A DNA stretch of 64,000 bases, taken from Escherichia phage vB_Eco-B1.1. Positions within the stretch are counted from its first letter, which is position 1. Every line of letters starts with the position of its first letter. Shown here in pieces: positions 28,071 through 28,946 of the stretch. The notes below the pieces were generated by a model that saw nothing but the letters and a program-made list of their open reading frames with translations, was not told the origin of the DNA and made no database searches. The stretch lies in sequence record ON871820; one strand, 5' to 3'. A program made the position numbers and the translations under genes.

Positions 28071-28410
28071 GAAACCGGGTCGCTACCGGTAAGTCGTCGG
28101 ACTGATGTTCCCTGTTTAAGGACTAGCATTAATAAATCTTTATGTTTTGTTAATGCCCCCTTATATCACAGCAGAAACGGCGCACCGAATTATCGATTCG
28201 AGGAAATATCTTTGCCATAAGCCGAGTAGCGTTTTTGACGGAACGTTCGGATATGGTCGAGATATGGCCTTTTAAAAATATTGAGTAGCGTCAACTACTT
28301 AATAACCGGGTTCGAATCCCGGCGTTTCGTACAAACACTTGCCTTAGCAGGTGGAACCCCGACAAGGTTGCCGCAAGGCTTAGCCCCAGCCGAAAGGTTG
28401 GGGCTTTTTG
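28071..28410 (+). ncRNA. candidate structured non-coding RNA / degenerate tRNA-like element (GC-rich island)
   Basis: About 340 nt with no ORF of 60 aa or more, visibly higher GC than flanks, several hairpins (ACCGG-GTCGCTA-CCGGT; CGAAT-TATCG-ATTCG), a canonical tRNA T-arm CCGGG-TTCGAAT-CCCGG at 28306-28322 with a possible acceptor pairing (28239-28245 with 28323-28329), ending in a terminator. Confidence 0.3.
28382..28410 (+). terminator. rho-independent terminator (copy 1 of a duplicated element)
   Basis: AGCCCCAGCC-GAAA-GGTTGGGGCT hairpin followed by TTTTT. Confidence 0.7.
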
Positions 28411-28411
28411 G

Positions 28412-28419
28412 TATAAATA
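28412..28419 (+). promoter_or_regulatory. late promoter TATAAATA upstream of ip-like gene
   Basis: Exact TATAAATA 29 nt upstream of the 28448 ATG. Confidence 0.55.
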
Positions 28420-28447
28420 GATGAGTTAATTAACACAGGAAATAACA

Positions 28448-28909
28448 ATGAAAACTTATGCTCAATTTTTAATGACCGAAGCATCCGCTTCAGATGTTCG
28501 CGCTGTAGCAACTGCTGCTATTAAAGCTGGTAAATATTCTTATAAAGATGCTTCTGACGAATCTCGGTACAAGTTCTATGACGATATGAGAGCTGAAGGC
28601 TTTGTGGGTAACTATGTTACCACCGCCTGGAAAAGCCTGGTTGCTACTGGTGCGGCTTTCGAAAAACCTTCTGGTAAACCTGCTCCTAAGGCTGACCCTA
28701 AAGCAGCACAAGAAAAAAATATTGCTAAAGGAATTATCTCTAGGTATGAAGCAATTCTTAAAGAACTTTTGATAATTAAGACCGAAGGCCAGAAACTTGC
28801 GCGAGCTCATAGTTTCAAAGATAATCCACATGCTCATGACCTAGAGTATGTTGAAGACCTCCAAAAAATCATCAAAGACCGCATTTGGTCTGCTAAACAA
28901 ATCAAATAA
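28448..28909 (+). CDS. internal-protein-like capsid-targeted protein (leader MKTYAQFLMTE)
   Basis: 153 aa; AGGA RBS; N-terminal MKTYAQFLMTEA matches the ip capsid-targeting leader pattern; late promoter upstream; flanked by duplicated terminators. Confidence 0.6.
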   Translation: MKTYAQFLMTEASASDVRAVATAAIKAGKYSYKDASDESRYKFYDDMRAEGFVGNYVTTAWKSLVATGAAFEKPSGKPAPKADPKAAQEKNIAKGIISRYEAILKELLIIKTEGQKLARAHSFKDNPHAHDLEYVEDLQKIIKDRIWSAKQIK

Positions 28910-28916
28910 CATTCTT

Positions 28917-28946
28917 AGCCCCCGACCAAAAGGTTGGGGCTTTTTG
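28917..28946 (+). terminator. rho-independent terminator (copy 2, near-identical to 28382-28410)
   Basis: AGCCCCCGACC-AAAA-GGTTGGGGC hairpin followed by TTTTT. Confidence 0.7.

Follow-up and report, generated by a model that had tools for sequence, protein, structure and literature searches.

The DNA analysed here, hereafter the window, is a stretch of 64,000 nucleotides from Escherichia phage vB_Eco-B1.1 (sequence record ON871820) and is a segment of a T-even (Tequatrovirus) genome. The element under study is a GC-rich, non-coding island that lies downstream of the phage tRNA genes and upstream of a small gene resembling those of the T-even internal proteins (ip). Judged by homology, the island consists of rnaD and rnaC, two small stable RNAs of T4 that close the phage tRNA transcription unit. 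These two RNAs of T4-like phages have been known since the 1970s. When positions 28071-28447 were compared with 50,697 phage records by blastn, 801 records matched, almost all of them T-even-like, with RB27 as the top match (98.1%) and Aplg8 matching as well. In the RB27 and Aplg8 records the matched stretch is annotated as the non-coding RNA (ncRNA) rnaD ("species 2 RNA") followed by rnaC ("species 1 RNA"), and the T4 reference record lists rnaC (139 nt) and rnaD (119 nt) as small stable RNAs whose end sequences agree. Since rnaD and rnaC are annotated in T4, RB27 and Aplg8, the island is a known feature, already recorded in other phages, and of the options raised for it in an earlier note on this DNA, that of a stable small RNA is the one that holds. 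The coordinates of both RNAs in the window were transferred from these annotations through an indel-free alignment.

For T4, Northern blots of these RNAs have been published, and rnaC is reported to accumulate as a discrete stable RNA of about 140 nt (PMC9697503). In a review of 2010 (PMC3014915), a transcriptome and Northern study of 2022 (PMC9697503) and an evolution study of 2025 (PMC12685909), RNAC and RNAD figure as tRNA-region products, stable or late, for which no role is known. The window copy of rnaC is 98.6% identical to those of T4, RB27 and Aplg8 over 148 nt, while that of rnaD is 96% identical to RB27 over 124 nt and 89-96% identical across T4 and RB27; length and strand agree as well. 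The order tRNA-Arg ... rnaD, rnaC, terminator, e.8 is that of T4, and the gene order within the tRNA cluster is identical in RB27 and Aplg8. The window differs from T4 in having a 116-aa open reading frame (ORF) between tRNA-Arg and rnaD and an ip-like cassette after the terminator, neither of which T4 carries, and in the 3′ end of rnaD, which reads CACCG where T4 has CACCA. We hold this identity and architecture of the region (rnaD and rnaC, the tRNA-like rnaC, the cassette) with high confidence, a judgement that does not take in function.

The general properties that the earlier note gave for the island stand. No ORF in it reaches 60 aa, the largest in 28071-28447 having 47 aa, and its GC content is 0.40-0.48 over 28000-28499 against 0.29-0.36 in the coding flanks. 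Its hairpins represent structure beyond chance. rnaC has a minimum free energy (MFE) of -50.6 kcal/mol (z = -5.2, with none of 200 shuffles as good), rnaD has z = -2.4, and the trailer of the transcript together with its terminator has z = -3.5 against shuffles. The features are collected in Table 1.

Table 1. Positions of the island, its predicted structural elements and the neighbouring cassette within the window.
Feature	Coordinates	Strand	Basis or remark
11 tRNA genes (Gln, Leu, Gly, Pro, Ser, Thr, Met, Tyr, Asn, His, Arg)	26687-27701	+	ARAGORN; Rfam tRNA
rnaD, T4 "species 2" small stable RNA, about 119-121 nt	28067-28187	+	homology to annotated rnaD
rnaC, T4 "species 1" small stable RNA, 139 nt	28193-28331	+	predicted tRNA-like four-way junction
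P1, 5′ strand CGAUUCG, acceptor-like	28194-28200	+	partner 28323-28329
P2, long irregular arm	28201-28270	+	outer helix 28201-28216 with 28255-28270
P2b, distal hairpin	28222-28225 + 28229-28234 with 28241-28246 + 28247-28250	+	RNAalifold
Loop L2, UUGACG, terminal loop of P2b	28235-28240	+	predicted kissing 5′ partner
P3, 10-bp hairpin UAUUGAGUAG / CUACUUAAUA	28279-28304 (28279-28288 with 28295-28304)	+	class-II variable-arm position
Loop L3, CGUCAA, terminal loop of P3	28289-28294	+	predicted kissing 3′ partner
T-arm of rnaC, CCGGG UUCGAAU CCCGG	28306-28322	+	
P1, 3′ strand CGUUUCG	28323-28329	+	followed by UA overhang, 28330-28331
3′ trailer of the tRNA/rnaC transcript, 50 nt, two small hairpins	28332-28381	+	conserved in Tequatrovirus only
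Intrinsic terminator copy 1, left cassette repeat	28379-28414	+	stem 28382-28405 and U-run
T4 late-promoter box TATAAATA, overlapping the end of repeat copy 1	28412-28419	+	sequence
153-aa gene, capsid-targeting-sequence-like N-terminus MKTYAQFLMTE|A, phrog_2280	28448-28909	+	
Intrinsic terminator copy 2, right cassette repeat	28914-28950	+	

Homologues of rnaC were gathered by BLAST with progressively distant queries, by pattern scans and with a covariance model built here (R1), which scores the window copy at 164 bits over its full length. On the covariation among these sequences, the 139-nt RNA is closed by an acceptor-like stem, P1, that abuts a T-arm, as in tRNA. Since 28323-28329 pairs with the 5′ end of the RNA, the molecule as a whole folds, on this evidence, as a tRNA-like four-way junction. 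RNAalifold, applied to 12 distinct sequences, returns P1, P2, P3 and the T-arm, and the single-sequence MFE fold agrees. In an alignment of 30 homologues that was guided by the covariance model, and is hence biased towards the nested structure to which it was fitted, 91.3% of cells hold standard pairs, a share that falls to 35-43% when partners are slid by 1-3 columns. Double-sided changes occur at 39 of the 52 pairs, and 500 column shuffles did not once reach any of the five observed pairing measures. A MAFFT alignment of 12 sequences gave 93.3% paired cells and 18 pairs with double changes, again with none of 500 shuffles as good. Structural conservation in related phages, which the earlier note had proposed as a check, is borne out by these changes.

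The individual helices show the same behaviour. In P1, the third pair changes jointly from A-U to G-C in the non-Tequatrovirus members, the first pair from C-G to A-U in PM2, and the two central U.U mismatches found in most sequences become U-A and C-G in fHe-Yen9-01, U-A and U-A in PM2, and U-A and A-U in TNG87. Most pairs of the P2 arm show compensatory changes; the arm occurs in two sequence types, that of T4 and that of Melville, which have in common the P2b hairpin, its loop and an invariant P2 base, GAGGA ... GGCCU. P3 has compensatory changes at 10 of its 10 pairs in the 30-sequence alignment. The canonical T-arm that the earlier note had recognised is present and belongs to rnaC; its stem, CCGGG/CCCGG, covaries to CCUGG/CCAGG, CUUGG/CCAAG and CCAGG/CCUGG. 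A 7-bp acceptor-like stem and a 5-bp T-stem with a 7-nt T-loop are thus both present with support from covariation. In the rnaC of Enterobacter phage Q7622 (Kanagawavirus) and of two IMG/VR contigs the T-stem is kept and the loop UUCGAAU is replaced by UGCAUGC, which indicates that the canonical T-loop is not strictly required in the family; the copies with this loop lie at L024 1506-1645, L007 5960-6099 and L020 4203-4342 in our numbering of loci.

A different acceptor partner for 28323-28329 had been put forward in the earlier note, namely 28239-28245 (CGGAACG). This pairing can be drawn, but covariation goes against it and points to 28194-28200 as the real partner. The internal pairing lacks any compensatory change. 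Among 12 sequences, five break it at one position and one more at two different positions, the breaks falling in Moon- and Karam-type sequences and in fHe-Yen9-01. At the 3′ end of the RNA no CCA is encoded. The stem is followed by GUACAAA, the T4 annotation ends in ...GUA, and the annotated T4 ends leave one unpaired U on the 5′ side and UA on the 3′ side. Literature searches on T4 species 1 RNA found no description of a tRNA-like fold, the RNA-sequencing papers of the 1970s lying beyond their reach.

The terminal loops of P2b and P3 point to a further contact. L2 is the exact reverse complement of L3, and the complementarity ends precisely at the loop boundaries. Among the 30 sequences, the two loops read TTGACG / CGTCAA in most members (21), TTGGCG / CGCCAA in the Marfavirus group (5) and TTGCAG / CTGCAA in the TNG87/KPV15 group (2, with two positions altered on both sides), while fHe-Yen9-01 has TTGATG / CATCAA and PM2 has GAGACG / CGTC-A, in which 4 pairs are kept (one sequence each). 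The six pairs are formed in 99.4% of cells, with zero one-sided changes at the two covarying positions. The contact lies outside the covariance model, and the alignment was not fitted to it. Given the perfect reciprocity of changes in near-invariant loops, a 6-bp kissing complex is the most economical reading, and L2 and L3 very probably form one that closes the body of rnaC. In the literature that could be searched, we came across no account of this contact.

Several points weigh against this account of the island. Two U.U mismatches occur in the P1 stem of 26 of the 30 sequences. The covariation of the kissing loops goes back to three independent lineage events, a small sample. The fold of rnaD, described below, is a provisional prediction with little covariation, and the stability and ends of both RNAs in this phage are assumed by analogy with T4.

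The 30 aligned homologues come from at least 11 phage genera. rnaC is present in Tequatrovirus, Mosigvirus (RB69), Gaprivervirus (VR7), Moonvirus (KM16, NM4.3), Karamvirus (VPA32, RZH, PG7), Kanagawavirus (Q7622, Kosakonia 305), Tegunavirus (fHe-Yen9-01), Gelderlandvirus (Melville), Mosugukvirus (PM2), Marfavirus (PWKp16, F48) and Edwardsiella phage PEi20, and in 138 Klebsiella/Raoultella phage records of Jiaodavirus type (TNG87, KPV15, PKO111). This last group was detected through the covariance model only (80 bits) and afterwards by BLAST with the copy so found. An IMG/VR scan with a pattern of loop and T-arm returned mostly ordinary tRNAs, and of 36 matches to the family pattern in a metagenome collection one was true. 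The same pattern, run over 185,579 genomes of bacteria and archaea, gave 19 chance matches, and the covariance model confirmed not one of them; a blastn search of 5,426 E. coli genomes likewise found nothing, so that at the sequence level there is no sign of a host counterpart. Nor did Rfam, searched at permissive thresholds over 26500-29200 and 28050-28430, contain a family for rnaC or rnaD, so the Infernal/Rfam check suggested in the earlier note came back empty for both.

Public records mislabel rnaC as tRNA-Met (SonariX, PG7) or tRNA-Lys (G29, G2133, phage 55), and in KM16 and in F48-type and TNG87-type Klebsiella phages it is overlain by coding sequences for a "hypothetical protein"; mis-annotated loci are L003 3054-3148, L025 1551-1644, L004 2807-3231 and L222 5807-5905. 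Klebsiella phage TNG87 also carries, adjoining tRNA-Arg, a 128-nt "tRNA-OTHER" (L222 8126-8253) with a clear acceptor stem and T-arm and a long internal insertion. At 11 bits it does not match the rnaC model, and it may represent another class of oversized tRNA-like RNA, or else a tRNA with an intron.

The position of rnaC bears on whether it has a function at all. One could hold that rnaC and rnaD are functionless by-products, spacers or processing/terminator modules that accumulate through their stable tRNA-like folds. This view, which we consider unlikely, fits their place at the end of the operon in T-even phages and the decades in which no function has been found. It also fits JS98 (Dhakavirus), which has tRNAs and no rnaC in its tRNA region even when searched with filters off, so that rnaC is dispensable for a T4-like phage. 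Yet P2b, P3 and the L2-L3 complementarity are irrelevant to excision and nonetheless show compensatory changes over at least 11 genera. In Moon-, Karam- and Gelderlandvirus, moreover, rnaC lies in mid-cluster and not at the operon end; SonariX, KM16, Melville and VPA32 share the arrangement tRNA-Trp, 5-nt spacer, rnaC, 5-nt spacer, tRNA-Gly, and in other genera a tRNA-Gly gene stands directly 3′ of rnaC where Tequatrovirus has its own trailer instead. Finally, rnaC is retained where most tRNAs have been lost, in RB69 with two, in VR7 with one and in fHe-Yen9-01 with none within 1.5 kb, which argues for a role of its own.

Far less probable is that the island is a decayed tRNA gene, a class-II tRNA pseudogene, as the earlier note had also allowed. 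The canonical T-arm and the 7-nt acceptor 3′ strand are what such a relic might retain, and the only tRNA-like match, a tRNA-Sec-like one of 17 bits at 28238-28330, points the same way while falling under the 47-bit threshold. ARAGORN and other annotators, too, call the homologues in SonariX, PG7 and G29 tRNA-Met or tRNA-Lys genes of 94-95 nt. Those calls, however, use the internal acceptor partner that covariation rejects. rnaC has no anticodon arm, and in the window copy neither the Rfam tRNA model (RF00005, up to E = 10) nor ARAGORN finds a match. Decay is incompatible with the purifying selection seen here, which takes in all 139 nt, shows compensatory changes in at least 11 genera and acts on an RNA with a domain structure of its own.

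rnaD precedes the tRNA-like rnaC at a distance of 5-6 nt and has a narrower distribution, the only groups in which it was detected being Tequatro-, Mosig- and Gaprivervirus. The fold predicted by RNAalifold comprises a 5′ hairpin, ACCGG[GUCGCUA]CCGGU, and a long, irregular stem-loop whose closing helix, GUCGUCG/CGGCG-CAC, uses the 3′-terminal CGGCGCAC. Compensatory changes were seen at 6 of the 34 predicted pairs. The closing pair of the 5′ hairpin goes from A-U to G-C in RB27-type sequences, and the apical hairpin is variable and has been replaced in one lineage. A CCA end is not conserved, for rnaD terminates in CACCA in T4 but in CACCG or CACAG in other sequences. A contact between the rnaD loop GUCGCUA and the repeated GAGUAGCG motif of rnaC was considered and dropped, as it comprises 5 bp only and shows no covariation. 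The 116-aa ORF inserted between tRNA-Arg and rnaD (27720-28070, + strand; phrog_3355, a family with no assigned function, and no Pfam match) ends within rnaD, its stop codon (28068-28070) falling in the 5′ end annotated for that RNA. Aplg8, G29 and RB69 (as ORF150c) carry this ORF; T4 and RB27 do not.

A second structured stretch lies within the tRNA cluster. The 114-nt spacer between tRNA-Asn and tRNA-His (27432-27545, + strand) has an MFE of -32.7 kcal/mol (z = -4.3) and is unannotated. It is conserved immediately upstream of tRNA-His in 355 phage records, with about 80% identity in Klebsiella, Enterobacter and Salmonella T4-like phages, and is missing from T4, which has no tRNA-His. With six sequences, RNAalifold predicts a long closing helix with 6 compensatory pairs, whose 3′ strand enters the first 3 nt (GUG) of tRNA-His. 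The spacer contains a near-invariant UUGACGCG (CUGACGCU in PM2), the first six bases of which are those of the rnaC L2 hexamer. A role in processing, or as a leader RNA, is conceivable.

Beyond the rnaC trailer the transcript ends in an intrinsic terminator which, as the earlier note had it, recurs almost identically downstream. Over 31 nt the two copies (28384-28414 and 28920-28950) form a direct repeat with 90% identity and a spacing of 536 nt, which can be extended by eye to the limits given in Table 1. The two copies do bracket a late promoter, TATAAATA, and an ip-like gene, as was claimed. The late-promoter consensus used here is established T4 knowledge, and a late box follows the first terminator in most cassette-bearing relatives. 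Two terminator copies, 535-559 nt apart, are found in the window, RB27, Aplg8, G29 and several IMG/VR contigs, whereas T4, RB69 and VR7 have rnaD and rnaC with a single terminator after the rnaC trailer and no cassette. Copy 2 leads either into the stretch found behind the lone terminator of T4 (GGTATCTAAGCC...) or into that of RB69, the window having the T4 version. Compared with T4, RB69 and VR7, the joints of the cassette lie inside the terminator repeat of about 36 nt, and they are identical in RB27, Aplg8 and G29. The occurrence of the island with one terminator and without the cassette in T4, RB69 and VR7 marks the cassette as an insertion/deletion unit, and from this comparison the unit gained or lost is the late promoter, the gene and one terminator copy. 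Insertion of the cassette would have duplicated the terminator, and the repeats of about 36 nt would have served as recombination joints for its gain and loss. Downstream of the terminator follows a homologue of e.8 (29022-29384, + strand; phrog_2678). Its listed start is a TTG, and the PHROG match covers residues 34-120 only; the true start is probably the ATG at about 29121.

Composite terminator/promoter motifs have been proposed to mediate indels in the hyperplastic regions of T4-like phages (PMC2839356, PMC4122927). In its arrangement the cassette resembles these PeSL motifs, in that a stem-loop terminator and a promoter stand beside a small accessory gene whose presence varies among close relatives, and in that its joints fall within the repeated motif at both borders of the indel. 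It differs in its promoter, which is late-type (TATAAATA) and not early, and no sigma-70-like site was found at the motif after the stem-loop.

Capsid-targeting sequences, their terminal prohead-protease site (hydrophobic-x-E|A) and the biology of the internal proteins have been described (PMC9026906, PMC12373910), and T4 Ip1-3 inhibit GmrSD type IV restriction (PMC12373910). At the level of a motif test, the 153-aa protein shares its N-terminal motif with T4 IpI and with the window ORFs at 25738, 33065 and 33838, MKTYAQFLMTE|A standing against MKTYQEFIAE|A (IpIII type, the ORF at 33838) and MKTFKEF...ITE|A (T4 IpI). Like the T-even internal proteins, it is encoded by a small, variable accessory gene with a late promoter; it differs from them in having no detectable similarity past the N-terminus and in belonging to a PHROG with no assigned function. 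An injected internal protein is thus a plausible reading of the 153-aa product. The 511 homologous records found by tblastn, all labelled "hypothetical", speak against it, as do the lack of a Pfam match and the fact that the N-terminal motif and the late promoter are all that the assignment draws on. The three other ORFs that start with the same capsid-targeting motif, all on the + strand, span 25738-26046 (MKTFKEFINE...), 33065-33346 and 33838-34416 (MKTYQEFIAE...). With the gene at 28448 they make four candidate injected proteins at three loci in the window.

The earlier note had further wondered whether a mobile element delivered this cassette and left the island as its remnant, a notion that we find barely credible. 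Direct repeats do flank the cassette, and the region is polymorphic among relatives. But rnaD, rnaC and one terminator exist without the cassette in T4, RB69 and VR7, the repeats are the terminator itself and leave the island outside them, and there is no transposase, integrase or homing-endonuclease gene in 27700-29000. As for a protein-coding origin of the island, decayed (the frame of about 40 codons mentioned in the earlier note) or in use as a small protein, a 42-codon ORF exists in the window (28147-28275), but its start is not conserved (TTA in T4 and Aplg8, TCG in RB69), in T4 a stop codon interrupts it in frame, and SonariX and TNG87 do not keep the frame intact. The homologues also differ by 1-2 nt indels, and their substitution pattern is that of paired RNA. 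We give a small protein encoded here next to no chance.

The host's RNase P and 3′ processing enzymes release the tRNAs of T4 from polycistronic precursors. RNase P accepts minihelices made of an acceptor stem and a T-arm (PMC11143913). The P1/T-arm minihelix may accordingly be pictured as a handle for the excision of rnaC, with RNase P acting at the 5′ end and trimming at the 3′ end, and for its stability; such a handle would explain the in-register place of rnaC within tRNA clusters. The annotated ends count against this route, since they are not the exact product expected of RNase P cleavage and CCA addition, and the route is therefore no more than an inference.

Without an anticodon arm, an encoded CCA or a reading frame, rnaC would be a tRNA mimic and not an adaptor. 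Our preferred guess is that it acts in trans as a decoy or inhibitor of a tRNA-recognising factor, for example a host anti-phage nuclease that cuts tRNA. The guess is prompted by the acceptor stem, the T-arm and the long variable-arm-like hairpin with its sequestered loop, all of which rnaC would display; it is speculation, which tells against it, and we regard it as possible but doubtful. Among such nucleases, PrrC, RloC and PARIS cut tRNAs other than tRNA-Tyr. Septu and retron-Eco7 act on class-II tRNA-Tyr, which they cut in the variable loop, an extra phage tRNA-Tyr rescues infection, and T-even tRNA regions counter tRNA-cleaving defences (PMC13096335). If the guess were true, rnaC would be an RNA-based anti-defence element that has gone unrecognised in the T4 tRNA operon for 50 years.

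As a genome feature the locus is ordinary, a textbook rnaD/rnaC pair with a variable accessory-gene cassette. What the present analysis adds is a correction of the acceptor stem, a model of four helices that covariation supports and that includes a predicted kissing loop, and a wider distribution of the family, which extends to Klebsiella phages of Jiaodavirus type that BLAST had missed. It also exposes a recurrent mis-annotation of rnaC in public phage records, as tRNA-Met, tRNA-Lys or "hypothetical protein". With a true acceptor stem, four helices and a covarying loop contact, the comparative model gives handles on the old question of function.

Among known RNAs, rnaC is closest in outline to a class-II tRNA. 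Both have a 7-bp terminal stem abutting a T-arm with a UUCGAAU loop; a long hairpin lies 1 nt upstream of the T-stem, and the spacing within clusters is tRNA-like. rnaC differs in having neither D-arm nor anticodon arm, with the 70-nt P2 arm in their place, and in a "variable arm" of 10 bp whose loop takes part in the predicted loop-loop helix. It also lacks an encoded CCA, its first pair is C1-G72, and its stem has two U.U mismatches. tmRNA and YrlA offer a second comparison, as larger RNAs in which an acceptor/T-arm module mimics tRNA and another domain replaces the tRNA body. Neither ARAGORN nor Rfam gave a tmRNA match to rnaC, which at 139 nt is too short for one and, in contrast to tmRNA, has no tag reading frame and no series of pseudoknots. 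The YrlA model of Rfam gave weak matches on true tRNAs and none on 28067-28331. In YrlA the ends form a Ro-binding helix and the tRNA-like module is internal, whereas in rnaC the acceptor stem is made by the ends themselves.

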